A stretch of DNA of 64,000 nt, taken from NCBI GenBank assembly GCA_000002445.1, contig CH464491.1, positions 128,001-192,000 on the forward strand. Direction: 5' to 3'. Of this stretch, positions 1-54,110 are shown one piece after another. The notes under the pieces were generated by a model. It saw nothing but the letters and a program-made list of their open reading frames with translations. It was not told the origin of the DNA and did no database searches. The first letter of the stretch is position 1. Every line of letters starts with the position of its first letter. Source of the DNA: Trypanosoma brucei (Eukaryota). The position numbers were made by a program, and so were the translations under genes.

Positions 1-625
1 TCTTTGTTTATTAATCACTAGTAAAACACGGTTTCTTATTATTGTGTTGCGTTGTTGTTGTTGTTTTCGTTTTTGGTTGAGTGTTAACGTGGAAATGTGG
101 AAGTTCCGACGGCAGCAGAGAGACGAATGAAAGAAATAATATATGTTCAGATATATGTATATGAAGGTAAAATATCAACCTTACACTGGTGCAATTAATG
201 GAAAACAGAACTAAAAGCAATGCCTAACAATCACCCCAGCCGAAGCAAATCACAAAAAGATGATATTCAAAAAAGAAAAATAACGAATCGAGATGTTAAA
301 CTGAACTCATAAATATTTTTTATATCTTTTTTTTTTTAATTCACAAAAAAAATAATAAAACGGACCTTCGCGCCGCAACACAACCCGCTACTTCCGAGAC
401 ATTACGTGCGCTCAAATAAAATGGGAGACGAGAAATACGCCAAACAACCCGAGATGTATAATATATATGCATATATATATATATTGATGAAGCGAACAGG
501 ACACAACAGCTATGAGGGTATATCTAATATAAAAAGAGATGCAAAAAAAAAAAAAAGAAACAATGATGGTTAAATAGTTCCACACATTTTTAAAGGTGGA
601 CTCCTCCAGTCATCAGATTCATTTT

Positions 626-651
626 GCCTCCTCCTCCTCCTCCTCCTCCTA
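626..651. repeat. (CCT)8 trinucleotide repeat
   Basis: cctcctcctcctcctcctcctcct in the 5'-proximal intergenic region. Confidence 0.9.
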
Positions 652-880
652 CCTTTTCATCCACTCCCCAGTGAAAAAAACTAATAACAAAAAAAAAAGC
701 ATCTGTATTTTCTGTAACAATAAAAAATTATCCAGCCCCTCCCTCCTTCTCTTCTCCTTCAGCCTTCGCCACTAACACAAAACGGTATTTTACCATTCGT
801 ACAAACGGTAAAAAGAATGATATTTGAAAAAAAAATTAAGATTAAAAAAGGACATTTTGTGCGATTGACTGCGAGGCATT

Positions 881-2053
881 TCATTGGAGGCCACTCCTCA
901 ACTTCGCCTCGTCGATGCACCGTTCAAGGGTCACCCGAAGGTCATGTTCCCTGTTAATGCAGCGTTCCAATTGAGTAAAATCCCTACGATACGCCGCCTC
1001 TTGAGCTAACAAAAAGTCCTCAACAGCAGCTGCGGGTACGGGAGGCCCATCCGTTATGCAACATCCGCCTGCCGCATCCTCATCAGTTTGAAGGTTGACA
1101 TTCACGGATGAATAACTGGAGAAATTAATATTCGCCTGCCTCAGAAACATGCACGCCTGTTCCCGCTCAGTTCCCTCTACACCACCCACTGCAGCATCCA
1201 CTTTTAAGAGTGCTGCGACTGTTTCTGCAAGGTAAAGTAAAGCAAGGCGAAGCGCCACACGATGAGAAGAGGCAGCAGAGTTTAAAGGCAAATACGATAA
1301 GAGTGCGAGTGCCAGGTGGCGATCCTCCCGCAACTCAACACGGGCGGCGTCACCGGTAACAATGTGCAACGGAAGCAAATGTTTCTCCATCCATGGAATG
1401 ATATCACGCTCCAGTGCCTCATCTGTCACCGAAGCGCCAGCACAAATCCGACCTTGGAATGTTTCCCCGTCAGTTCCAGCAATACATGGTCCTATCCGTC
1501 GCATAGCATTGCGAATGGTTATGCGGGTGACGCGAAGGATGCTCAAAGGCTCGTTTTCAACGGTACTGCGTGGCAAGCAACTGAGAAGTTGCAGTAGGCA
1601 GTTAAGAATGTTACATCCCTCGTCACAGAGTGCATCCAATGGCGCATATTTCACAACTAAAACGGCCATTCGAAGCAGTGCTCCAATTGCTCGGGGACCC
1701 AACAGCGGGCGGTGCGCGAAACAATCAGCGAGACTCCGAAGGTTTTCTAACGAAATTTGATGCAAGCACGGCGCAGTTCCGGTCCCATCACCTCCCAATT
1801 CATTATATACCTGAAGGACATCCCTGACAGATTTCAGTATCATTTCCTCCATTCCAATAACCGCAGCCCCCGCCACATTGATGCTATTGCTGAGAAATAC
1901 CAATAATTGCGAAGTATGACGAGGCGCCTCTGGAAAACGAAAACCAGCAGAAATTCCACTAGAAAACAATGTGGCGTAAAAACTTCCTCCCGGTTTTCTT
2001 CCGTAAAGCGACGGTCCCTCGGGTGGGAAAGCAGTAACACCACCATTGCTCAT
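881..2053 (-). CDS. Conserved hypothetical protein (~390 aa), no recognisable domain
   Basis: Long ORF with coding-like GC3-rich codon usage. The track start at 2059 is a TTG; the first in-frame ATG is at 2053 (cat at 2051-2053, MSNGGVTAF...). No motif recognised. Confidence 0.6.
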   Translation of the reverse strand: MSNGGVTAFPPEGPSLYGRKPGGSFYATLFSSGISAGFRFPEAPRHTSQLLVFLSNSINVAGAAVIGMEEMILKSVRDVLQVYNELGGDGTGTAPCLHQISLENLRSLADCFAHRPLLGPRAIGALLRMAVLVVKYAPLDALCDEGCNILNCLLQLLSCLPRSTVENEPLSILRVTRITIRNAMRRIGPCIAGTDGETFQGRICAGASVTDEALERDIIPWMEKHLLPLHIVTGDAARVELREDRHLALALLSYLPLNSAASSHRVALRLALLYLAETVAALLKVDAAVGGVEGTEREQACMFLRQANINFSSYSSVNVNLQTDEDAAGGCCITDGPPVPAAAVEDFLLAQEAAYRRDFTQLERCINREHDLRVTLERCIDEAKLRSGLQ

Positions 2054-5000
2054 TTCCAAATAGTTATATAACTCTTCCTATTAGTTTGTTTGTATTGTTT
2101 ATTTCGACACTCCACTCCAAGTTTCAACCCTCGTTACACCGCTTATGGATTATCAAATAGCAGTAAAGATGAAAATGTGGATAAAACAAAACAATAATAA
2201 TAATAGAAAATAATAATGAGATTATAATAAAGGATGGGGAATTTTTTTTTACTTTAGATATGATGGACATTGTGCCAAACAGAGTGTCAGAGAAGAATTC
2301 AAGTGATGTTGTTGGCGAGGCAAATCATTAAAATAAGTGTTGAGGCAAATTCGCATAGAAAAAGAGGAGTTTAGGTTTGAAATGTTTTATTATGCAAATT
2401 ACGCACCACGCATGCGCATATCATCCCCAGCATGTTGATTTCTTTTCTTCTTTCCCATGTGATTTGTCTCATTCCACTTCTTCTGCCACTGCCATTCCGT
2501 TTTGTTTGGTGTTTTTTTTTTCATTTCCTTTTTTAAAAAAAAGAAAACCACTTGTGTCAGTGTGTATAAGTGTGCGCTTATGTGCAAATATACATTAAAT
2601 ACATTATATATATGTATATATATGTATAGGTATGTATATATGTATGTATACGTCATGTGGATTTTGCACGTATGTGATATAGCTGAAACATGTTACATGA
2701 ATCAGAGTATATTCAAATATCACACATATGCTCAACATCACACAACAGACACACACACATATGCGCAAACACACAATGACAAAAAAGAAAAAAAAGACAT
2801 ATACACATATACATATATACTCATTTATATATATGTATATATATATATATATGCGGACAAAAGTTAAAAGAGCAAAGAAACAACAACAAACAAAAAAAAA
2901 CAAAAGTAAGACACATTTATGTCGAAGTATACGGTAACTCATTCCGCACGTCCATGGAAAACATTTTGCAACGGCAAGAGTTAAAAATCCTCGAGACACT
3001 GCTCGTAGAACTCCTTTCATAACTCTCAACCCCTTCGTCATCTCTTCTCCGCATTTAAAACCATTGTGTTGCGAAAAGTAACTGATTAAAAGCAGGGGAC
3101 AAAACAAAAACAAAATCAAAAAAAAACAAACACAAGCTCACGCGTAAGCGCAAAAAAAAAAAAAAAAGACGCTAATATCATACGTCACTCCTTACCTTTG
3201 CTTAGTCCGTGTGTGGACGTTCGTCCCTCCGCTCGTTCTCAAGGCCGCTCAACTTATAATAGTAGCGAAAAAGAAAAATACTTTTAAAAAAAAAAGGCAG
3301 CAAAAAAATGAAAAATAGAGAAATAAAAAAAGAAAACAAGCTCCTTCCTCCTTTTAATCAATCCTTCCGCTGTTGGACCCTAATGAAAAATCGGGCAAAT
3401 GCATATAATAATATAGTGGTAATATATATGTAAATAAATATGAATGTATATATATATATATATATATCATCAGCCTCTACACGGTTACAAAGGAATTAAG
3501 ACTGAGGGAAAAGCCCCCCCAAAAAAAAAAAAGAAACAAATCGAAGCAAAACAAAGCAAAGCGGAAGGTATTTATTTATATTATTAATATTTATATGTAG
3601 CACCAGTATCTGGAGGAGAGGAGGAGGAGGAGGAGAGGAAGAAGAAAAAACAACGTTTCAGCGCCTCCAACAAACCTCCCCCGCAACACAAAACAAAAAA
3701 AACAAAACAAAACAAAAATGAAAGGAAATGAAATGAAAAGAAAAGAAAATGAGGGATAGAGCAAATACAAGACAGCAACAACAACACAGAATTGAGAGAA
3801 ACAGGAAATAAAATAAAAAAGGGGGGAAAATATATTTACAAAAAGAAAAAAAGCAAGAACCCAATCGAGACAAAGACGGTCTCAAACACATCAGTTTATT
3901 ATTAATAAAAATATTCTTCATATCGTCTCCCACTGTTAATATTTAGTTATGTTTGTTTGTTATATTTCCTCAACTTAACCCTTCACGCATACTCTCCTTT
4001 TTCGTCTTTCTTTTTGTTTACTTTCTTTTTTTTTTCTTCTTTCCTTCGTTTCACGAAAACGTATTTTTCCCGTTTCTCTTTCTTTTATTTTTAATATATT
4101 TTTGTCCCCTTTCTCTCTTCTCTAATCCCTCTTTCCTCACGCATACGCGGACGAAAACAAAAAAAAATTAAAAAGGAAAAAAAAGAAAAAAGAAAAAAGA
4201 AAAAGAAACAAATTGGTCACTCTTTTTTTATTTATTTATTTATTTACTTTAGGAACTGCCGCTTCCTCCCTCTTTTGCCTCCATATCCTCTCTCCCGCAA
4301 ATACGCAAAAACATACACGTCTAAATAATATTCAAAACGGAGCGTTGCCTCATTTATTTATTTATTTAAAAATCACTTCACCGTTTGTTCTCTTCATCTT
4401 CTCTGCTTCTATTCACACTATTTGTTCCCTGATATTATTCTCTCACTGCTTTACTCCTCTTTCACTTCTTTTTATTTCCGATTAAATTCCAAACACCATC
4501 ATCATTATTTTCCCTTTTTATTATTTTTTTTTCCTTTTTTTATTTTACTTTTTTTTTAATTTTACGGAAATATAAAGAAAAAGAAGAAAAGGAGGGTAAA
4601 AGAAAGTAGCGACGGTATGACCCATTTAACTAAAAAAAATTTTCCCGTCCTCCTCCTCCTCCCCTGTTTTATTATTTTTTAAAAAAAAAAAAGAATCCAT
4701 TATATTATTGCGGCATCCGCCACACATGCGTAACACCCTCAATTAACAGAAGAGGGGAGGGGGGAAAAAAAAAAAAGAAAAGAAAAAAAAACGAAAACAA
4801 AAAAATTAAACCTACGTAAAGAAAAAAAAAATGAGAATACAAAGAAAAAAAAAGCAAAGCAAAAGCATAAACTGTCAAAAGCAGCAGTAAAACGAAAAGT
4901 AAAAAAAGAAAAAAGAAAAACAACCCCGTACCCGCCAACAGAAACCCCCCCCTTCTGCCCACAGGAAAAAAAAAGCATATAAATCGTGAACTTAAAAAAA

Positions 5001-5180
5001 AGAAAATCACCACACATTCATAAAAAAAAAAAAGATATAAAGAAAAAGAAAAGAAAAACAAATGCTTACAAACAATATAAGAGAAAACAAACAAAAAAAA
5101 GAGAGTTTACAACCGTCGCAAAACGCACAGGTTCTTCTTCTTCAGTTTTCAACCTTTCTTTTCTTTAAAAACATCAAACA

Positions 5181-5338
5181 ATAATAATAATAATAACAGT
5201 AATAGTAATAGTAATAATCAATAATCAATAATCAATGATAGTTATAGCTATATTTATACTTATATATATTTATATCGGTGGTAACAGCAGCAGCAGCAGT
5301 AATAGTAATAGTAATAATAATAATAACAATAATAATCA
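5181..5338. repeat. (AATAAT)/(AGTAAT)/(CAG)n compound microsatellite blocks in intergenic DNA
   Basis: ataataataataataacagtaatagtaatagtaataat ... cagcagcagcagtaatagtaatagtaataataataataac, seen directly. Confidence 0.9.
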
Positions 5339-5923
5339 CACAATAAAGGCAACACAAAATAGAAGAGACGTTAAAAATTAAAAAGTGCCGCATGGGAGGA
5401 AAATATTTTGAAAAAAAAGAAAAAGATATATCCGCGTTCATACGTCACGGCCACTTTTAAAAAAGTTGCAGCAACCCGCCACAGTGCGTGTAAAACTTTG
5501 CGGTCCTCCAACAACGTCCACCACACTGAAAAAAAAAAAACAATCAAGGAAATAAACAATGTGGAAACGAACAAGGAGAAGATGGAAAAAGAAAAAAAGA
5601 GTGGGGGTATATATCGTAAAGGATTGAGCAACAACAAAACGGGAAAAAAAAAAGAAAAAAAGAAAAAGAAAAAAAAAAGATGACCGACATGAATCAGTGG
5701 GGCGATAATTCTTGGTGGCAAACCTGTGTACAAACAAGAAACAAAAAGAAGAAACCCCAATTTCCTTTTTCCCCCTTTCCTAATCTTTTCCCCAACCTCA
5801 TCCTTTACTTCTTTCCATCATTTCCCTCTTTCCTCCTCCTCTTCTTCCTTTCCACACACCACCCCCATACAATTCTACTTCCCAATAGCTGCTGTCACAC
5901 ACACAAATACACATTTCATAATG

Positions 5924-7444: not shown

Positions 7445-9466
7445 TCACACCTCCGCCCCTGCCTCGAGAGTATCCGATTGCTGCTCTCTGACACTTTGAG
7501 GTAAAGGCAGTCCCACAAGTTGGCAGAAAAGAGGATGCATCCGAACTTCATCAAAACTTCCCTGCGCTACGGCGCGACCCCTCTCCAAGACAACAATGTG
7601 ATCAGCCTTACGTATCATACTAAGTTTATGGGCAAACATAAGTACTGTTCGCTTCTCACTCCCCTTCTTCGCATCCTCAATGAGCCGACTGACGGCTTCA
7701 TGCACCACAATCTCCGACTCACTGTCAAGTGCAGATGTGGCTTCATCAAGGATTAAAATGCCGGGAGAACGCATCAAAGCCCGTGCAATGGCAATGCGTT
7801 GCTTTTGACCACCAGAAAGTGACCGTCCACCCTCGCCAACATAAGTATTGTAACCTTCAGGTAAGGCGGTGACAAACTGGTGGGCATTAGCTTTCGTCGC
7901 GCTCTCAACAACAGATGAATACAGCCACCGATCAACCGCATCATCCCAGTCGTGTCCCTCAGCCCCATATGCAATATTCTGCGCAATTGTCCCCCCAAAT
8001 AATACCGGCTCCTGTCCAACATACCCAACCTTGCTCCGTAACCAGTGGGTGTCAATACTCTTAAGGTCCGTTCCATCCAGAGTTATTGTTCCGTCTGAGT
8101 GTTCGTACAACTTCATCAAAAGCATTGCCAATGAGCTTTTACCAGAACCACTACTCCCCACAATACAGGTACATCGCGAGGGTTTTATCTCTAGGCTGAG
8201 TTTCTCGTACACTGCAACCTCGGGACGTGTCGGATAGGCGAAAGAAACATCAGTTAATTTAATGTTCCAGTGGCACTCAAGAGGAACCATACCTTTCGTT
8301 TGTTCTTGTAACTTTTGTATTTCGTCCGCAGTATCAAGTATGTCATACACTCGTATGCTTGCACCAAATCCTTTGTTGATTTCAGTTGCCAAGTTGGTAA
8401 GACCCATAAGTCCCAGGCCGCAGTAAACCGTGTACAATACAAATGAGAAAAGGACACCGGACGATATCTGGTTCGCAGCCACAAGCATAGACCCCGCCCA
8501 TATGATGCAATACAGCGCACCATACCCCACAAACTGGATCGAACTAACATATGAAGCATTGAAAAACAACATACGCTTGCTTATCTGGAAGACTACATCG
8601 ACCTTCTTTTCGTACCACTTCGATTCTTTAGATTCCATAGCAAAGGCCTTTACAGTGCGGATGTTATTTAGTCGCTCACTTGCGACGCTTCCACTAACGG
8701 CGAGGGCGTCCTGCATTTGGCGCTGCAGTTTGCGAACAAATTTTCCATAAACCCCAGCAAATACGGCCAAAGGGGGGATCATGCCACACACCACACATGT
8801 TAAAGTGGGTGAATAATAGAGCATAATACCAATGCTCCCAAACGTTTGCAGGATGTTCTTACTTCCTTGAGTCACCGCGTCCGTAAGGGACGCGCCAATA
8901 AGGTTACAATCCATGGAAAGGCGTTGTGCAAGTGAGCCAGCGCTGTTTTCTGCCACATCAAAGAATGCTGCCGGTTGTCTAAAAATGGCACGATAGAGTT
9001 GACCGCGCAGACGGGCAATTACACGCTCGCCCGTATAGCCAATACAAGCCAGCCTGGCAAAGTTGGCAACACCGGCAAGTGTAAACCAGCCAAGCAACTG
9101 CATGGATGTCCCCAACGGTAGCTCCCCGTTTCCTGCAAAATCGATAAGTTTCCCAAAAGTCGCCGGGATTGCGAGAGTGGCCAAACTGTAAAACCCAACG
9201 CCAACCACCGCAGCCCCAATGAGTACCGCCTCCTGCCGCACTGTCCGAAGGTACCGCCAAAACGAACCTTTTCGTGTCGACGGCTCCACAACGTAAAGTG
9301 GCGAGAAGCTCCTGCTTGGTCGTTGTGTTGGTGATGCCTCACCGTAATGGTTACGCTGGCGAACACTCGAGGCAAAGCGCTTAACACTAAGCAAAGTTTC
9401 AGGATGATGTGGGTACCACAACAAATGAGCGTGGCGGACCATTTTAGTTATACAACGTGCTGTCAT
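7445..9466 (-). CDS. ABC half-transporter, ABCB family (TMD-NBD), probably mitochondrial
   Basis: Walker A CIVGSSGSGKSS, ABC signature LSGGQKQRIAIARA, Walker B ILILDEATSALD. An N-terminal six-helix TMD sits ahead of the NBD, with a basic Arg-rich N-terminus that looks like a presequence. The track start at 9535 is TTG. The first ATG is at 9466; an alternative ATG is at 9442 (MVRHAHLLW...) if the splice-acceptor AG lies just after 9466. Confidence 0.85.
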   Translation of the reverse strand: MTARCITKMVRHAHLLWYPHHPETLLSVKRFASSVRQRNHYGEASPTQRPSRSFSPLYVVEPSTRKGSFWRYLRTVRQEAVLIGAAVVGVGFYSLATLAIPATFGKLIDFAGNGELPLGTSMQLLGWFTLAGVANFARLACIGYTGERVIARLRGQLYRAIFRQPAAFFDVAENSAGSLAQRLSMDCNLIGASLTDAVTQGSKNILQTFGSIGIMLYYSPTLTCVVCGMIPPLAVFAGVYGKFVRKLQRQMQDALAVSGSVASERLNNIRTVKAFAMESKESKWYEKKVDVVFQISKRMLFFNASYVSSIQFVGYGALYCIIWAGSMLVAANQISSGVLFSFVLYTVYCGLGLMGLTNLATEINKGFGASIRVYDILDTADEIQKLQEQTKGMVPLECHWNIKLTDVSFAYPTRPEVAVYEKLSLEIKPSRCTCIVGSSGSGKSSLAMLLMKLYEHSDGTITLDGTDLKSIDTHWLRSKVGYVGQEPVLFGGTIAQNIAYGAEGHDWDDAVDRWLYSSVVESATKANAHQFVTALPEGYNTYVGEGGRSLSGGQKQRIAIARALMRSPGILILDEATSALDSESEIVVHEAVSRLIEDAKKGSEKRTVLMFAHKLSMIRKADHIVVLERGRAVAQGSFDEVRMHPLFCQLVGLPLPQSVREQQSDTLEAGAEV

Positions 9467-37396: not shown

Positions 37397-37709
37397 TAAC
37401 AACTGTGCACACTTTAAAGAAGATCGCAACTACTGGTGTTCGCTTTCACTAGCAAAGAAAGTAATGAAGAACTACCCTAGACTGTACGTGAAGCGGAAGC
37501 AGGGACAAAGAAAAAGGAAAAGAGGAGTAAACTAGCACATCTTTCCGTACTACCCGGTGTGCTCAACGGAACAGGGTGTGAGTGGGCACCCCACAAGAGT
37601 GCCAAGAATAAACACTGGCGGTTTAGGATCAACAAAGTAAAAGAGAAAAAGAACAAACAAGTGGGTCAGGTAACCTTAGTTGAAGACTCAATCCTCCCCT
37701 CTGCCCAGC

Positions 37710-38189
37710 TCAATATGGAATCATTGCCTCGTAGTCTGCCGTGCGGCGCGCCAGCACCTCCACTTTCTTGGGGCAAACAAATCCGCCGTTGCGGGTGCTC
37801 ACCTTTTTGGGTGGAAGTGGGGTTCCCGCCTTCTTAGCAGCCCGAAATGCTTCAAGGTCCTTTAGCTTCTGCTTGAATGCCTCCTGGCAGCGAGACTTAC
37901 GCACGTGCTCAAAACGCACGCAGATGCGCTTGCGAACTGTACGGTTCCTCACCGGTTTATTGATGATAACACCAACACCACGCGGCGTTACGTTCCATAC
38001 AATGCCGGTTCGGCCGTGGTAATACTTGTGGGGCATCCCAGCACGTACAGCAGCGTCCGCAACAACGTCAACGTAGTCACCGACCTTGAAGTTGGTCAAT
38101 ATCGTGCTGACGGAAGGAACCCCGTGCTTGCGGAATTTTTTGGCAAAGAGGTGGCGGGTGCCACATTTGTACCCGTGGGAGTGAACCAT
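37710..38189 (-). CDS. RPL21: 60S ribosomal protein L21e
   Basis: MVHSHGYKCGTRHLFAKKFRKHG...GDYVDVVADAAV...HGRTG is diagnostic of L21e; 159 aa. The track start is TTG; ATG is at 38189. Confidence 0.92.
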   Translation of the reverse strand: MVHSHGYKCGTRHLFAKKFRKHGVPSVSTILTNFKVGDYVDVVADAAVRAGMPHKYYHGRTGIVWNVTPRGVGVIINKPVRNRTVRKRICVRFEHVRKSRCQEAFKQKLKDLEAFRAAKKAGTPLPPKKVSTRNGGFVCPKKVEVLARRTADYEAMIPY

Positions 38190-46940: not shown

Positions 46941-48730
46941 ACGCAACGATCTTTTCGTTAACCTTTCTCGATTATATTTGAAGTATATCCTCAACCTAAC
47001 CCTAGAATAAATTGGTAAGGCACAAGAGCTGCTTAGGGCCACCGGTCACTCCCGTAACTGCAAGAACAATATACTAATATACACACGTACATGCACGAAC
47101 AAAAAGTTCTGTTGACACTTACAGTTGCTTAAAATACTAAAACCAAAGACTGGGCTCTAAACCCAAATGCACACCGCGCCTTCACATAGAAACGCAACAT
47201 TTTAAGCCGCTGAGCATGAACAAATGATTGTGTCGTCTCAACGACACATGACCGAAGAGGTGCGCAAGGACGTCCAATGACACAACAAAAGAGTGACCAC
47301 CACAATGACAATCGTTGGGCGGCGCGTTTAATTGCATTACAACTACGTCGGTACCTTCGCACTAACCATACATTTTAGTTCAAGCCAGAGAGATAACCGT
47401 GTAAAAGAAAATTTCCGTCCTTTTTCGTGACAAACGAGAGAAAACAGCCAAAGGCAACGACTTTACAGGGGAAAGGACAGGCGCTGACGAGACCAACAAC
47501 ACCTAGACATTATGCAGTACCACCGCTGGGTCCTGGTAGCACCCTGTAACCCAACCCTAGCCTCACATGAACTGTCTAAAGCACAAAAGAACGCGGACGT
47601 CACCAGTTCCAACATTAAAAGGCTATACAATAGGCTTTCAGTGATCTATTCCTATCACTTGTTTGTCTCTCTTGCTCATCCGTGGGGGAGGGGGGAACAG
47701 ACACCAATACACACCTTTCAGTCGCTATCGCGAGTCGGACTCAATTCTGCCGCTATCGTGCATGGTTAAAAGTCCCCCTGTTGTCCAAATCCCAATCGGG
47801 TTTCACGATTTCGTTGACACTGCGGCGCCGGAGGTGCAATATCTATTACACAAAGTAACGTCCCCTCCGCATCAGACTCATTCTGCGGTTATCTCATACC
47901 ACTTTTTCGCTCTAAGTCTTCGTTATTTTTTTTTATACTAGCTCTTCTTCTTTCCGTCTTTCTCCCTTTCGCGGGTGTGTGAGAGTAACTCACTGTACAT
48001 GGCCTTTCGTGTGCGATCGTTGCGGATAGTGCTCACGTTCCCAACCCCTTACACAGGGCTAAGAAAGCGCGATGCAAGTGGAGAGCGAGTGCGGGATTGG
48101 TGACACCCCTGTGCCGCGAGGAGAAGCTATGCAGGCTTTCGCGAAGTCGCATACATCGTACGATCGGCCCCTTTACAAAACATTGTACACGAGAGTGTTC
48201 GAACCAGCAGCGGTTCAGTAAGTGTTACAACGTTTCCTTCCATTCGTTGCGCCGGCTTATGCCTTCGAGTGTCGCGTGGAAGCGTTGGCCCCTTCACTAT
48301 CAAGTGCACGCTTGATCCGATTGCACGGTGTGGCGCGCACACCGGGCACACCGCCGCTGCCGCGGGCGCCCTCTCGGCACACGAAGTCCATCGGTGCCAG
48401 CTTCCTGCGCTGGAGCCTAAATCCCTTCCCACTGCCATATGCTCCGCAGCGCCCTCCGGAACAACCCCCTTGACTAAACACTCTCTGGCATATACTGAAT
48501 TATGCATCATGATCCACAAGTCTTTCCTCGACTTGACTATAACGCTTGATCACTCCGAGGGGCTGGATAATCACAACAGTTCCGCCCCCACCTTGTACAG
48601 TATCACGTTTCAGCTTCTTTTGTAAGGTGACTGGAGGGTGCACACCGAAGTTGGGCAGGCAGAGGTTGCGTTGGCACTGCCTCTGCTTACGGTTTTTTTC
48701 CAGGGGAAACAATTCACCGTTAGTCCGTAT

Positions 48731-49143
48731 CTTTTTTTTTTAATTCCCATCACAACACCATGTCGAGCAGCGGGTGCCAGCGCCTACGCCGTGTATAGCC
48801 CGTACGTTTCGTGCTAATCTCTTTCCTTGAGATAGCCCGGCGCAGTTCCACTGAATCCCGCGCGACGACGGGCTGGGATTCTCTTCCACATCACCGGACA
48901 GCAGCATCTTAGTGCGGATGATACTGCTGATGACACGCTGGCACGTGCCCAGGAACCGATAAATGAAAAACGGTGTCCCAGCATAACGCTGCTGATCCCT
49001 GTGCTGTATGATGCCGTAGCCGGAGCACAGCAGTGTTCCCCATGAAAGGAATACTGCTGGCTCTTGGCTTCCCCCGATGATACGGGATACTGGACCCTGG
49101 CACCACGTTGAGGTGGCCGGCATCACCAGGGCGTACGTTTCGT
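48731..49143 (-). mobile_element. Short ingi-derived element (RIME-like 5' fragment) with canonical Pr77, bracketed by a 12-bp direct repeat
   Basis: Minus-strand sequence from 49131 begins CCCTGGTGATGCCGGCCACCTCAACGTGGTGCCAGGGTCCAGTATCCCGTATCATCGGGGG (Pr77). It then matches the ingi 5' region including the 2A-coding segment (KMLLSGDVEENPSP). Homology ends exactly at 48812. The direct repeat cgtacgtttcgt sits at 49132-49143 and 48800-48811. An A10 run at 48731-48740 lies 60 nt further on. Confidence 0.75.
49055..49131 (-). promoter_or_regulatory. Pr77 internal promoter of ingi/RIME/L1Tc/NARTc elements
   Basis: Reverse complement of 49055-49131 matches the conserved 77-nt 5' sequence shared by trypanosome LINE/SINE pairs. 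Recognised from memory of the published Pr77 sequence. Confidence 0.75.
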
Positions 49144-49534
49144 ACGAGTCGACCCCGTACATTGAACCCTGTGATGTAGATGCGATATTGGAATACTCCT
49201 CGTTTTTGGCTGATCTACCTTGAGTGAGTCGGCACGCACACTGCCAGCTGTGAGTTCTCGGTTGGAAAAAGATCCTGGAAATGCATACGAAATTCGGGGA
49301 ATCGCCGCATACTGATGTTCATGGTGCATCCGCAGAAACAAATCCGTGCTTGCTCACCTTCCATATTTCCGGACTTGATTGACACCAGCCACGAGCTCTG
49401 CATTCACGCCATCTCGTTGTAATGCCAGCGTGTGTCAGAGTGTTTTTCACTGCCGTAATGTTCGTACTGATTGGTGGAGCTTGTGGCCATGTAAACCGAT
49501 CTTTGTTCGGGTTAGCCTCTCAGGCACAGCGGTG

Positions 49535-52500
49535 TTACTCGCGGGTTGATATTTCGCAGCAACCATTCACAATGCAAGGAGACGGCGATGCGCAAGCTCT
49601 CTTCCACCGTTCGCCAAGTGCCTCCTCTCGCGTCACGCCGCTGGAAGTGAATACGAACTGCAGCCCAATGCTCGCTTTCCTGCTTTCTATCTTTAGGACT
49701 GGTCGCCATAGCTCTCGTGCAGGCGGTTCGATAGCACTCAATGAGCCATTTGCTAGCGCAGTGGGGAGAGACGGCGAGTTGTTGAAAATCGACAGTTTCC
49801 TCATCGTTTTCTCCCGCATGGAGAGGTTCTTTAGTACACTCCGCGCACCAAGCTCCAGAACAATGCATTCCGCTCTGTAACTGCATGAGAGTTTCCCTGC
49901 TCCTGTCTTGGGTGCACAAATCAGCGTGTTGTTTCTATAGAGCAGGGCAGCTGCCCCGGACTTCTCACCGAGGGACACGGATCCATCAGTCCACAATTCG
50001 TAGTGCTCTCGTCGCGGTGGCTCCTTCCCCCTCCGTGCAAAATGCCGTGCAATCCACTTTTCGGAAGCCTCCCTTTTGACATCGTCAGGGTCATCAGCGC
50101 ACACAGGCTTTATCTGCGTGTGAAATATCGGTCGGCAGCTGTGGTGAAGCGTCGATGTCTCTAGTGGGTGCTCGCGTGGCTCAATGTGGAGGTGGGGGTA
50201 GAACCGCATGATGCGGGAATGTAAGACTCTGACTGGATGTTTGCTGTGGTATACTTCCTCAGCACTGCGCCGCAAACATCCGCCTCGTGACTCACACATC
50301 AGCATGAATTTCATGCTGCGCACAAGAGTGGCCGTCTTGAGTGGCAGGAGGTTTGCTTCCAGCAGAGAGTCCTCTTTGCGCGTCCCATGCTGTATGCCGG
50401 CTGTGATGCGACTGGCTTTGTGTTGTGCTGCTGCAAGGAGGTCGCGACTTCGTTTTGAAGCGTCCCAGTACCATACCTCAATGCCATGCATGGTGTGTGC
50501 CTGTACGAGTGCTAGATAAAAAGCTCTCAGCACTTGTCGTCTTGGCCCCCATGTAGAAGCTGAGATGGCTGCTATCTGCAGTAGTCGGAAGTCCATCTTG
50601 CGTCTCGTTTCGGCCGCATGTGTTGCCATCCCCTGCAGACTCTGGAATGTTACTCCAAGAAGCTTTAGTGTCCTGTCAGCTCCTATTCTTTTGCCGTCGA
50701 GTTGTAATGTAAGGGAGTGCCGCTCTATACACCCGAAGAGTGTGCACTTTGTTTTCGCTACGTTGACAGACATGAAGTACTCTTTTGACCACTGTAACAC
50801 CACGTTTAGACCGCATTGTAGTGTGTGGTTGATGACATCCCTCTCTGTGTGCCTCGCAAGTATCGTTAGGTCGTCTGCAAAGAATCCGTGCTGCAGTAAC
50901 GGCACTTCTGCAAGGCGTTGGCTCAACGAGTTCATGACAATAATGAACATGATTGGGCCAAGGACAGTTCCTTGTGGCACTCCTCGCTCAAATGTTCTGC
51001 TTCTGGAAAGCTTCTCCTTGAATCTCACTCTGCCAGTTCGGTTACTCAGAAATGATACGCACCACTTCACAATGTGGGGTGATACCTTCATTCTGTGCAT
51101 TTCCCTCGCAATTTTGTCGTGGTCTACTGTATCAAATGCCTTCTCGTAGTCAACGAATACAGCACCCGTACGAGATTGGTGCGTGGGGCGGCAGAGGGCA
51201 GCGCGGACGTGCAGGAGTTGTTCGAGCGTTGAGCATCCGGGGCGAAAGCCTGATTGCTGCGGCGTCAGCTGGGACTCAACAGTGTCTCTAAGTCTCGCGG
51301 CAATTATGCGCTCCATGACTTTGCAGAGACAGCTCGTGAGCGTCACAGGCCTGTAAGAATCGAGGTCCTCCGCCTTTTTTCCGGCCTTCAGGATGGGGAT
51401 GATAACACCAGTCTTCCATGCAGGCGGCACGACTCCCGTTCGTAGGCTCTCATTGAATAGCCTCAGAACAACATTCAGCGCTGTTCTACCGAGATGTTGC
51501 AGTGCCTCGTTGTATAAGCAATCAGGTCCGGCTGCGGATCCACTCGGTAGCAGTTTGATCGATCTCCGTAGTTCAGCCATCGTGATGGGACTGAACTCAC
51601 TCGCTATCGTCTTTATTGGTGCCGGTGGGTGTGAGTCGGTGTGCCTTCTTGCGCGGGACGAGTACAGTTTAATGAACCTCTCAGCTTGACGGTAGTCCGT
51701 GATGGCCGCGTTATCAACAAGTACAGCCGGTGTGGTTAGTGGTCGTGGCGCATATACCTTCTTGAAAATGTGCCAACTGCAGCGGTCTGACACCGCAAGT
51801 CTGGAGTATAGCGTGCTCCATCTCTTCTTTGTGATACGGTCCAGGATCTGCTTACGCGTGGCTACCAACTTTTCCCCTCGGTGGGAGGGTCCGCATCCAG
51901 CGATCTCTTCATCGAGTTTCGCGAGCTCAGGTGTCCAATGTGGTGACGTTGCTCTGCAGCCACGGGGGACGGAGACCTTCGTCGCAATGCGGATGGCGGA
52001 GCTCAATTTCTGTTCCAGGGTGTTGACGTTCTTCTTTCTACCAATTTTCCTGCAGTACTCGTCAACCTTCAGACGGAAATTCCTCCAGTCAGCTTTTAGC
52101 CATGCGTACATGGGCTTTCGAGGCCGCGGGCAGCTCAGCGCATCTGTGTCGTCTCCAACGATAACATCGAAAAATATGTGATGGTGATCGCTATTGGGAG
52201 AATGAAGCGATGTCCACGTGTACACTGTGCAATTCCTTGACAGTGTCACATCAGGGGTGGACTCCCCGTGGTGGCGCGCGTTCCTGGTGCACTCACCAGT
52301 GTTGCAGACCAGAAACTGGTTGTCAATGCGCCACTGTGTGAGGGTTTCACCCTTGGTATTTGGTGGGCTCGCGCGATCCGATGCCAACGCGTGTGCGTTA
52401 GCGTCTGCACCGATGAGCTGTGAACTTTCAGTCGTCAGAAGCGTATCTAGGTCAGTTGCCGTGAAGGTGTGTTTTGGTGGGATGTATGCCGACGTGACAG

Positions 52501-52843
52501 TCAGCGCCGTTCCACGTGCAAGGTGAATTGTTGCATGCACTTGTTCAATGCGACCAATAACATGCATACCGGTCTCGACTGGTAGGTCCTCCCTCACTAG
52601 TATTGATACACCACCTCCTTTGCAGTTACGAGCTATTCCGTGATGTTGGTAGCCAGCAACGCTAAAGCAAGCCGCCTCTCCAGGCGTCATCCTTGTCTCG
52701 CTCAACAGACAAAAGGCGATCCGCTCATCAACAAGGGTTTTGTGGAGTGCTAATCTCTTTCCTTGAGATAGCCCGGCGCAGTTACACTGAATCCCGCGCA
52801 ACGACGGGCCGGGATTCTCTTCCACATCACTGGACAGCAGCAT
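49535..52843 (-). CDS. ingi-type non-LTR retrotransposon ORF: 2A peptide - AP endonuclease - reverse transcriptase (1102 aa, C-terminal part frameshifted)
   Basis: ATG at 52843, MLLSSDVEENPGP (2A StopGo motif). APE/EEP motifs (LSETR, GADANAH, SDHHHI). RT motifs (QSGFRPGCST, FVDYEKAFDTV, RGVPQGTVLGP, FADDLTIL). The frame breaks after 49535, and RT/RNaseH-like sequence continues in other frames (49123-49919). Confidence 0.9.
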   Translation of the reverse strand: MLLSSDVEENPGPSLRGIQCNCAGLSQGKRLALHKTLVDERIAFCLLSETRMTPGEAACFSVAGYQHHGIARNCKGGGVSILVREDLPVETGMHVIGRIEQVHATIHLARGTALTVTSAYIPPKHTFTATDLDTLLTTESSQLIGADANAHALASDRASPPNTKGETLTQWRIDNQFLVCNTGECTRNARHHGESTPDVTLSRNCTVYTWTSLHSPNSDHHHIFFDVIVGDDTDALSCPRPRKPMYAWLKADWRNFRLKVDEYCRKIGRKKNVNTLEQKLSSAIRIATKVSVPRGCRATSPHWTPELAKLDEEIAGCGPSHRGEKLVATRKQILDRITKKRWSTLYSRLAVSDRCSWHIFKKVYAPRPLTTPAVLVDNAAITDYRQAERFIKLYSSRARRHTDSHPPAPIKTIASEFSPITMAELRRSIKLLPSGSAAGPDCLYNEALQHLGRTALNVVLRLFNESLRTGVVPPAWKTGVIIPILKAGKKAEDLDSYRPVTLTSCLCKVMERIIAARLRDTVESQLTPQQSGFRPGCSTLEQLLHVRAALCRPTHQSRTGAVFVDYEKAFDTVDHDKIAREMHRMKVSPHIVKWCVSFLSNRTGRVRFKEKLSRSRTFERGVPQGTVLGPIMFIIVMNSLSQRLAEVPLLQHGFFADDLTILARHTERDVINHTLQCGLNVVLQWSKEYFMSVNVAKTKCTLFGCIERHSLTLQLDGKRIGADRTLKLLGVTFQSLQGMATHAAETRRKMDFRLLQIAAISASTWGPRRQVLRAFYLALVQAHTMHGIEVWYWDASKRSRDLLAAAQHKASRITAGIQHGTRKEDSLLEANLLPLKTATLVRSMKFMLMCESRGGCLRRSAEEVYHSKHPVRVLHSRIMRFYPHLHIEPREHPLETSTLHHSCRPIFHTQIKPVCADDPDDVKREASEKWIARHFARRGKEPPRREHYELWTDGSVSLGEKSGAAALLYRNNTLICAPKTGAGKLSCSYRAECIVLELGARSVLKNLSMREKTMRKLSIFNNSPSLPTALANGSLSAIEPPARELWRPVLKIESRKASIGLQFVFTSSGVTREEALGERWKRACASPSPCIVNGCCEISTRE

Positions 52844-52975
52844 CTTAGTGCGGATGATACTGCTGATGGCACGCTGGCACGTGCCCAGGGACCGACAAAT
52901 GAAAAACGGTGTCCCAGCAAGACGCTGCTGATCCCTGTGCTACATGACGCCGTTGCCGGAGCAAAGCACTGCTCC
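52749..52975 (-). repeat. Dispersed direct repeat: ingi 5' region (2A-coding), about 95% identical to 48812-49039
   Basis: Aligned by eye: ctaatctctttccttgagatagcccggcgcagtt[a/c]cactgaatcccgcgc[a/g]acgacgggc[c/t]gggattctcttccacatcac...tgctgatccctgtgct. The two copies lie in the same orientation 3.9 kb apart. Confidence 0.9.
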
Positions 52976-53380
52976 AAACAAGAGGAACAATGACGTTCCG
53001 TCTGTGCAGAAAGCGAGTTTATGGGCCTTGGGGCCGCGGTGGTGTGGGTGATGTTTTCGTTGAATGAAAAGGCCCCGCCGCCTCATTCGCGTTGCGCGGG
53101 AGGAAGATCAAACCACCTCAGATGTGAATGTTTTTGCTTACTGAAATAAAGCTGTGCTGTGCCAGTCTCGGCGTGTCCGGTGTTTGCGCACCTGAAACTC
53201 CCCTTTGTGGTGCAATATCTTCTTTAGGGACTGTTCGAGTATGTCGGGGTTTTCAGGGACAGCGCGAACCTACTGCGCGCGGTGGATTGGGCTCATTTTC
53301 CAAGGCGGAGTGGTGCCGGTTCTTGGATGCACGGCCGGTCCGCAGCTGCGAGTTCGTCAGCGCCAGCCCTTCGGACCTCA

Positions 53381-54053: not shown

Positions 54054-54110
<57 letters not shown>
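54054..54110. repeat. (TA)28 dinucleotide microsatellite
   Basis: 57 bp of perfect TA repeats, seen directly. Confidence 0.98.

Follow-up and report, generated by a model that had tools for sequence, protein, structure and literature searches.

How does the head of an ingi retroposon, complete with its Pr77 and lacking a poly(A) tail, come to lie between two copies of a perfect 12-bp direct repeat, close to a large ingi copy that has no Pr77 of its own? This arrangement was pointed out in a first-pass annotation of the window, by which we mean the whole stretch of 64,000 nucleotides of Trypanosoma brucei DNA analysed here. The annotation read the locus as one where the promoter and the coding body of an element had become separated, and named the insertion of a 5' fragment into a pre-existing element among the possible routes.

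The locus and its setting

The window belongs to the core region of chromosome 11 and contains a divergent strand-switch region, with genes on the minus strand to the left of ~47 kb and on the plus strand to the right of ~56.5 kb. The fragment sits at the edge of this region, and the accumulation of retroposons at strand-switch regions is known (PMC2323293, PMC4748587). Neighbouring genes encode an SNF2/RING helicase, PP2C, eIF-5A, SCAMP and dynein LC8; the neighbour proteins are 100% identical to those of Trypanosoma equiperdum OVI contigs, and chromosome 11 of T. b. gambiense DAL972 and that of T. b. equiperdum IVM-t1 share the gene order of the window. A perfect (AT)28.5 microsatellite occupies positions 54054-54110 of the strand-switch region, between the retroposon cluster and the eIF-5A gene.

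Two rows of a published TREU927 table (a Repbase INGI BLAST survey, PMC4660242 supplementary file 1) map onto the window. The row NT_165288 176811-177131, listed as element 1-321 on the minus strand with the 5' end intact and the 3' end truncated, corresponds to window 48811-49131, and its upstream 100 nt are identical to the window. The row NT_165288 177865-180968 (element 100-3203) corresponds to window 49865-52968. By these rows the window very probably spans TREU927 NT_165288 128,001-192,000. The features of the locus are collected in Table 1.

Table 1. Features of the fragment, its flanking repeats and its host element, in window coordinates.
Feature	Position	Strand	Remark
Young ingi segment, nt 98-3204, ~95% identity to active ingi	49865..52971	-	APE endonuclease, RT, RNase H start
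Empty RIME site in the window	49731..49743	.	Occupied by a canonical inverted RIME in DAL972 and IVM-t1
Old degenerate ingi-related (DIRE-like) part, ingi nt 3205 to ~4070, ~55% nucleotide identity	49144..49864	-	
GTCGACTCGT, core GTCGACT compared with GTxGGxTxxx, 4/5 fixed positions	49144..49153	-	Exactly 10 nt upstream of the target-site duplication
T1, upstream 12-bp copy ACGAAACGTACG	49132..49143	-	Abuts Pr77 nt 1
Inserted ingi 5' fragment, nt 1-319	48813..49131	-	No poly(A), no ingi 3' end
Pr77 (internal promoter / HDV-like ribozyme hallmark)	49055..49131	-	2 substitutions relative to full-length ingi
2A-like motif DVEENPSP	48869..48892	-	NPGP in the DAL972 and IVM-t1 alleles
T2, downstream 12-bp copy ACGAAACGTACG	48801..48812	-	In phase with the RNVRAIHG coding remnant of the old element
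Window sequence right after ingi nt 321: GGCTATACACGGCG...			
Old element continued downstream of the insertion, ingi-equivalent nt ~4080-5200	47715..48800	-	3' limit approximate; includes the A10 run

The inserted ingi 5' fragment

As had been annotated, the fragment begins with Pr77 and runs on through the 2A region, colinear with ingi nt 1-319/321; the dinucleotide AC at 48812-48811 fits both ingi nt 320-321 and the start of T2. Against a full-length ingi (L005), the fragment carries 12 substitutions over 321 positions and not a single indel. Within Pr77 (identical at 75 of the 77 positions), the CCACC motif at +16-20 and the DPE CGTG at +25-28, whose positions were defined previously (PMC4748587), are both intact. 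The coding content is confined to ingi residues 1-104, with no single long ORF running from APE through RT and RNase H to the zinc finger. Both a poly(A) tail and the ingi/RIME 3' end (...GAAGGCACGAAGAAAATTCC-A(n)) were searched for in the fragment and are absent, T2 following directly after nt 319/321, which bears out the earlier statement that the bracketed unit is not a normal RIME. The RIME junction lies at nt ~249 (GDVE/LQK), and as the fragment continues for another 70 nt, its template would have been an ingi RNA and not a RIME.

No Rfam family was found for the fragment region, the minimum-free-energy fold of its Pr77 is not exceptional (z = -1.3), and exact-protein look-ups returned no match for the fragment's 127-aa ORF or for the 1102-aa ORF described below. 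The fragment is a 5'-complete, tail-less, non-autonomous piece with an intact Pr77; it encodes nothing useful and has no mobility of its own. The A10 run that had been noted 60 nt beyond the downstream repeat was located at 48732-48741. This run, which belongs to the old element, varies in length: it reads A10 in the window, A11 in OVI, A13 in DAL972 and T+A12 in IVM-t1.

Pr77 is an RNA polymerase II promoter and ribozyme hallmark; it has been proposed in general to contribute to transcription initiation and to aid polycistronic transcription at strand-switch regions (PMC1874656, PMC4748587). The copy in the fragment is the only Pr77 in the window, and it lies intact at the head of the minus-strand gene cluster, whose orientation the fragment shares. 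The first gene of this cluster starts ~1.9 kb downstream of the fragment and ~2.2 kb from Pr77 +1. The fragment's Pr77 may contribute to transcription initiation.

The flanking 12-bp repeat

The fragment is bracketed by a perfect direct repeat, identical at 12 of 12 positions in both copies. Its upstream copy lies where it had been placed; the downstream copy had been given as 48800-48811, which is one base off (Table 1). Read on the plus strand, the 12-mer is CGTACGTTTCGT; it occurs twice exactly and nowhere else in the 64 kb, and shuffled sequences yielded 0.19 matches even with one mismatch permitted. Since the bases immediately outside the two copies differ (on the minus strand T/C before and C/G after), the repeat is exactly 12 bp long. 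In minus-strand order the locus reads ...GTCGACTCGT/ACGAAACGTACG/CCCTGGTGATGCC...GAGATTAGC/ACGAAACGTACG/GGCTATAC..., with slashes at the boundaries. A 12-bp target-site duplication (TSD) is the length stated for Tbingi/RIME (PMC3820030), in agreement with the first-pass annotation. It had also considered that the 12-mer might simply be part of the ingi/RIME consensus at both positions; the 12-mer is absent from the ingi consensus, and exact copies were found only at orthologous loci. What it encodes is (V)RNVR of a zinc-finger remnant in the old element, in the same codon phase at both copies.

We then built an excision construct by removing 331 nt (49143-48813), that is, one 12-mer plus the fragment. 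This construct gave one tblastn HSP (E = 2e-13) in a single frame, which covers ingi residues 1215-1492 and runs across the join. The test proposed in the annotation, whether removal of the unit and one repeat restores contiguous ingi-internal sequence, is thus positive. The restored motif FNVRGRLV/RNVRAIHGVGAG matches ingi FAVPGRLLHHIRTIHGIGSGS, and the longer stretch ...IYITGFNVRGRLV/RNVRAIHGVGAGT... aligns to ingi ...ICTSKFAVPGRLLHHIRTIHGIGSGS..., a C2H2-type finger. The fragment therefore sits inside the old element, at ingi-equivalent nt ~4070, a result that supports the insertion of a 5' fragment into a pre-existing element. Because excision restores an ingi-like zinc-finger motif, the 12-mer is native target sequence that was duplicated, and on these alignments the pair behaves as a real TSD.

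The sequence next to T1 is compatible with cleavage by the ingi endonuclease. It has been reported previously that the Tbingi/RIME (ingi4) endonuclease signature is AxxxxxxxTxxxGTxGGxTxxx^xTxTxxTxxxxx (PMC3820030). Of the five fixed positions of the core, GTCGACT next to T1 matches four with no shift in register; by chance, 1.4% of window positions do as well (p ~0.014). The other five signature positions, including all three T positions inside the TSD, are unmatched. Among 25 TREU927 insertion flanks (this site and 24 others), 16 have a core match of at least 4/5 with a 12- or 13-nt TSD.

The host is an old element with a young ingi core

The element that surrounds the fragment is a mosaic extending on the minus strand from ~53.06 kb to ~47.7 kb. 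The BLAST match to a reference ingi (L004) ends at 49865, which is ingi nt 3204. In a global alignment with the fragment and one 12-mer removed, identity to ingi is 46% over nt 1-100, 90-100% over nt 101-3200 and ~55% from nt 3201 to ~5200, and the steps are abrupt at both ends of the young segment. The 3' switch falls inside the conserved RNase H motif SCSYRAEC (GAGCGGAATGC/ATTGTT) and is identical in the gap-free PacBio assembly of IVM-t1; the 5' boundary is common to DAL972 and IVM-t1. At the protein level, three stretches of ingi show weak but collinear similarity, which covers both sides of the fragment: residues 1053-1153 to 49864-49583, residues 1214-1299 to 49595-49325 and residues 1354-1489 to 48820-48410; over residues 1053-1492 it is interrupted by stops and frameshifts. 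The 1102-aa ORF at 49535-52843 is a chance read-through from the young part into the old RNase H remnant. Since the exchange points lie at homologous positions, gene conversion or homologous recombination is indicated, and the mosaic looks as if a live element had converted a dead one.

These observations change the picture of the neighbouring copy. It had been annotated as one ingi without Pr77 at 49144-52980. As to Pr77, local alignment of the first ~97 nt of the large element detected no significant similarity, the score being no better than that of shuffled sequences. The extent is different: the high-identity part is confined to 52971-49865, and 49864-49144 is much older sequence that resumes beyond the fragment. 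MAFFT gave only a weak in-register resemblance to Pr77 at the 5' end of the large element, and a degenerate Pr77 there has no statistical support against shuffles.

The same structure in other assemblies

The structure is conserved in three assemblies. Both DAL972 (Sanger) and IVM-t1 (PacBio) show T1, fragment and T2 in this order with the two 12-mers intact, and this shared architecture excludes an assembly artefact. In T. equiperdum OVI the 3' junction agrees, and a scaffold gap lies inside Pr77. We found no empty-site allele, the fragment being present in 4/4 T. brucei-group assemblies that reach the site, and no longer form (a full-length ingi) between the 12-mers in any strain examined. 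The annotation had considered that other strains might carry a canonical RIME with poly(A) inside the repeats; in the other strains examined the insertion is tail-less too. The fragment alleles differ at ~14/320 positions, with derived changes on both alleles; the 2A motif is one of the differences. As the alleles have diverged and all are occupied, the insertion predates the divergence of the haplotypes.

The OVI scaffold L003 (CZPT02000171.1) was considered as an alternative allele and rejected as a misjoin across a repeat: at 7886-7923 it has a 10-N gap inside Pr77, and the piece upstream of it flanks a RIME at ~2.90 Mb of TREU927 chromosome 11. The order of pieces further along this scaffold is also unlike the window.

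A polymorphic RIME lies inside the old element, ~600 bp upstream of the fragment. In DAL972 (L006 5366-5866) and IVM-t1 (L008, about 5371-5871) it has poly(A) and a 12/13-bp TSD, (C)ATTGAGTGTTAT, and it serves as a positive control for what a normal insertion looks like. Together with the DIRE/ingi mosaic, this presence/absence polymorphism provides markers of retroposon dynamics among T. brucei subspecies.

Comparable tail-less pieces elsewhere

Two further loci have a similar anatomy. At L013 (IVM-t1 chromosome 11, ~3.63 Mb), ingi 1-326 is followed directly by ACGAGTTCCAC, and ACAAGTTCCAC stands before Pr77; the repeat matches at 10/11 positions, the AC of ingi nt 325-326 also belongs to the repeat, and poly(A) is absent. 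At L014 (DAL972 chromosome 10), ingi 1-420 is followed directly by TGGCTAGTCTACAC with the upstream flank TGGCTACTCTACAC (13/14 positions matching; the TREU927 upstream flank reads TGACTAGTCTACAC), again with no poly(A) and with 0 nt of microhomology at the join. L009 (IVM-t1 chromosome 4, ingi 1 to ~301) has no TSD-like repeat flanking its 3' end and was rejected as an analogue; some truncations thus arise differently. A side observation concerns positions 3040-3065 of L014, where the start of the TSD, TGGCTA(G), repeats ingi nt ~413-418, TGGCTA(C), 2 nt before the junction. This 6-nt homology is offset from the actual join, and simple terminal priming does not explain it.

The published TREU927 table contains pieces with an intact 5' end, a truncated 3' end and unrelated flanks that end at element positions 320, 321, 321 and 326, and further pieces that end at 242, 248, 294, 301, 341, 420 and 450 (PMC4660242). 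Overall, 5'-intact truncated pieces are strongly skewed to ends below 450 nt, with far fewer longer ones. The rows ending at 320-326 are NT_165288:7995-8313 and 37564-37884, NC_005063:249667-249988 and NC_007280:1935125-1935450 (PMC4660242).

Microhomology in the table was examined indirectly, from upstream flanks only: the ingi bases at the end of each alignment were set against those that open the putative TSD. At least 2 nt are shared in 5 of the 18 other 5'-intact, 3'-truncated pieces (4, 3, 2, 2 and 2 nt), when ~1.2 would be expected (permutation p ~0.004); a position-shift control was noisy, with up to 5 matches at +5. Taken together, these results indicate a recurrent kind of event and not an accident unique to this locus. 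In the literature searched we found no description of a 3'-truncated or internally primed ingi, and in the papers searched no ingi RNA species ending near nt 320. To our knowledge, the TSD-bounded nature of such pieces and their recurrence have not been described, the element itself being a bare row in the published table.

Origin of the fragment

In target-primed reverse transcription (TPRT), a bottom-strand nick at the future 5' edge of the TSD provides the primer, whose 3' end is complementary to the first TSD bases. We consider aberrant TPRT, started inside the RNA or at a 3' end without poly(A) and using 0-3 nt of microhomology, to be the best explanation of this locus, and on balance a probable one. 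The events would have begun with an old DIRE-like element whose nt 98-3204 were overwritten by young ingi sequence through gene conversion or homologous recombination. Later, the ingi endonuclease would have nicked the target, which matches the GTxGGxT core at 4 of 5 positions, inside the C-terminal zinc-finger remnant of the old element; the staggered cut would have given rise to the 12-bp duplication. [quoted passage not shown] A direct joining of the last ingi nucleotide to the TSD, with no poly(A) and few shared bases, is the expected outcome of a primer that paired with an internal stretch of the RNA or with the end of a short 5' RNA; the need for the reverse transcriptase to reach nt 1 would explain why the 5'-complete truncated pieces are short. 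The microhomology at the window locus is only 2 nt, which counts against this explanation. So do the 0 nt at the L014 join, the failure to find an empty-site allele, the indirect nature and noisy control of the table comparison, the unmatched T positions inside the TSD, the truncation at L009 and the absence, in the papers searched, of an ingi RNA ending near nt 320.

The same product could have arisen if a complete ingi with a 12-bp TSD had been inserted and a later DNA deletion had removed everything from nt 320 through the poly(A), for example by microhomology-mediated end joining in which the AC of nt 320-321 met the initial AC of the 3' TSD copy. T. brucei repairs breaks largely by microhomology-mediated joining, which counts for such a deletion, as do the AC actually present at the junction and the 5' fragments truncated with no TSD, as seen at L009. 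However, such a deletion would need a right-hand breakpoint precisely where poly(A) meets TSD, the same coincidence would be needed independently at L013, at L014 and probably at several TREU927 loci, and the longer form is retained in no strain examined; we regard a later deletion as unlikely. Alternatively, first-strand cDNA synthesis could have been completed and second-strand synthesis aborted after ~320 nt, with the nascent strand jumping to the target at the TSD and the remaining cDNA being lost. The product would again be complete at the 5' end, carry both TSD copies and short microhomology and lack poly(A), and short 5' pieces would be favoured, so that sequence alone fits this course and first-strand priming equally. 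Yet the boundary between cDNA and TSD is no preferred landing point for a polymerase, whereas for first-strand priming that boundary is the nick itself, and an aborted second strand seems to us decidedly unlikely.

Two further readings fare much worse. The separation of promoter and coding body that had been proposed would make the fragment the Pr77 head of a single ingi, rearranged by recombination or template switching so that the head now lies downstream of its own body. It is true that the large copy has no recognisable Pr77 and that the only Pr77 of the window lies 12 bp beyond the old sequence trailing that copy. However, nt 97-321 are present in both local copies, which differ from each other at 15 of 225 positions, while compared with an unrelated full-length ingi over the same stretch the large copy differs at 9 positions and the fragment at 8. 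As their mutual difference exceeds that of either from an unrelated ingi, the two copies are independent acquisitions and not the head and body of one element. In addition, the fragment lies inside and not beside the old element, interrupting sequence that is collinear across it, and the boundaries of the large copy at nt 98 and 3204 are unrelated to nt 319. On the strength of the excision alignment and of the divergence in the overlap, the split-element reading is contradicted, and we give it hardly any weight. Equally improbable is a RIME-like composite in which ingi 1-319 and the 60 nt behind it would have the A10 run for a tail, or a chimera, mobile and copied elsewhere in the genome, that joins an ingi head to the 3' part of the old element. 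The A10 run 60 nt downstream and the several TREU927 rows that end at element 320-321 would fit it; but the 60 nt are in phase with the zinc-finger remnant of the old element and unlike the ingi/RIME 3' end, no TSD surrounds the unit from Pr77 to A10, neither the protein database nor any of the loci retrieved contains a paralogue of the downstream sequence or its 127-aa ORF, and the sequences downstream of L013 and L014 are unrelated. A composite mobile family was also sought through the downstream 127-aa ORF and rejected: only orthologues were found, and Logan contigs end before the fragment.

If aberrant TPRT is accepted for this locus, it is natural to ask how general it may be. We put forward tentatively, as a possibility that may well prove wrong, a recurrent and undescribed class of endonuclease-dependent, tail-less, head-only ingi insertions that are 5'-complete, have a TSD directly 3', show 0-3 nt of microhomology and have ends clustering near nt 320-326. 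Were such a class real, it would mean that the ingi reverse transcriptase can initiate without the 3' region or poly(A), or that a discrete Pr77-derived 5' RNA of ~320-330 nt is retrotransposed; promoter-bearing modules would then be scattered independently of the element body. One could speculate that the clustering at nt 320-326 reflects a 5' RNA with a defined end, or else a readily accessible stretch that contains AC (GCACTCCAC).

Relation to known retroposon insertions

What lies here is a nested insertion and not a split element: a well-known retroposon has given rise to a non-canonical product, head-only and tail-less. Insertions of this kind are unusual but apparently recurrent for ingi. 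Mobilisation of ingi and RIME is thought to need their shared 3' region and poly(A). TSD-bounded tail-less fragments would mean that the machinery can at times begin at other points of the RNA, and every insertion of this type adds an intact Pr77 stripped of the remaining element. The general picture of trypanosome retroposons is unchanged. Among other LINEs, non-canonical TPRT products include L1 internal priming at imperfect tracts, R2 template jumps and U6/L1 chimeras. These resemble the present case in having an endonuclease-made TSD, a reverse transcription start away from the normal 3' end and little or no pairing. They differ in being mostly 5'-truncated or chimeric, a 5'-complete, 3'-truncated and tail-less product being rare among them.

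Compared with the canonical Tbingi/TbRIME insertion (ingi4; Bringaud et al. 2004, summarised in PMC3820030), the fragment has the 5' Pr77, the TSD of exactly 12 bp and a place among other retroposons in a strand-switch region, and 10 nt upstream of the TSD it has a 4/5 match to the GTxGGxT core. It departs from that insertion by lacking poly(A) and the ingi 3' region (RIME B), by retaining no more than the first 104 codons of the ORF, and by a 3' junction at nt 319/321. RIME, an internally deleted ingi of ~0.5 kb, is likewise short and non-autonomous, with an ingi head carrying Pr77 and a 12-bp TSD; however, in RIME nt ~249 is fused to the last ~250 nt plus poly(A), whereas the fragment reaches nt 319 and has no 3' half. 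The host, in turn, resembles TbDIRE, the degenerate relative of ingi and L1Tc, in its length of ~5 kb, its collinearity with ingi, its stops and frameshifts and its position in a strand-switch region. It departs from TbDIRE in that 3.1 kb are ~95% identical to active ingi with sharp homologous boundaries, and in having no significant 5' Pr77.
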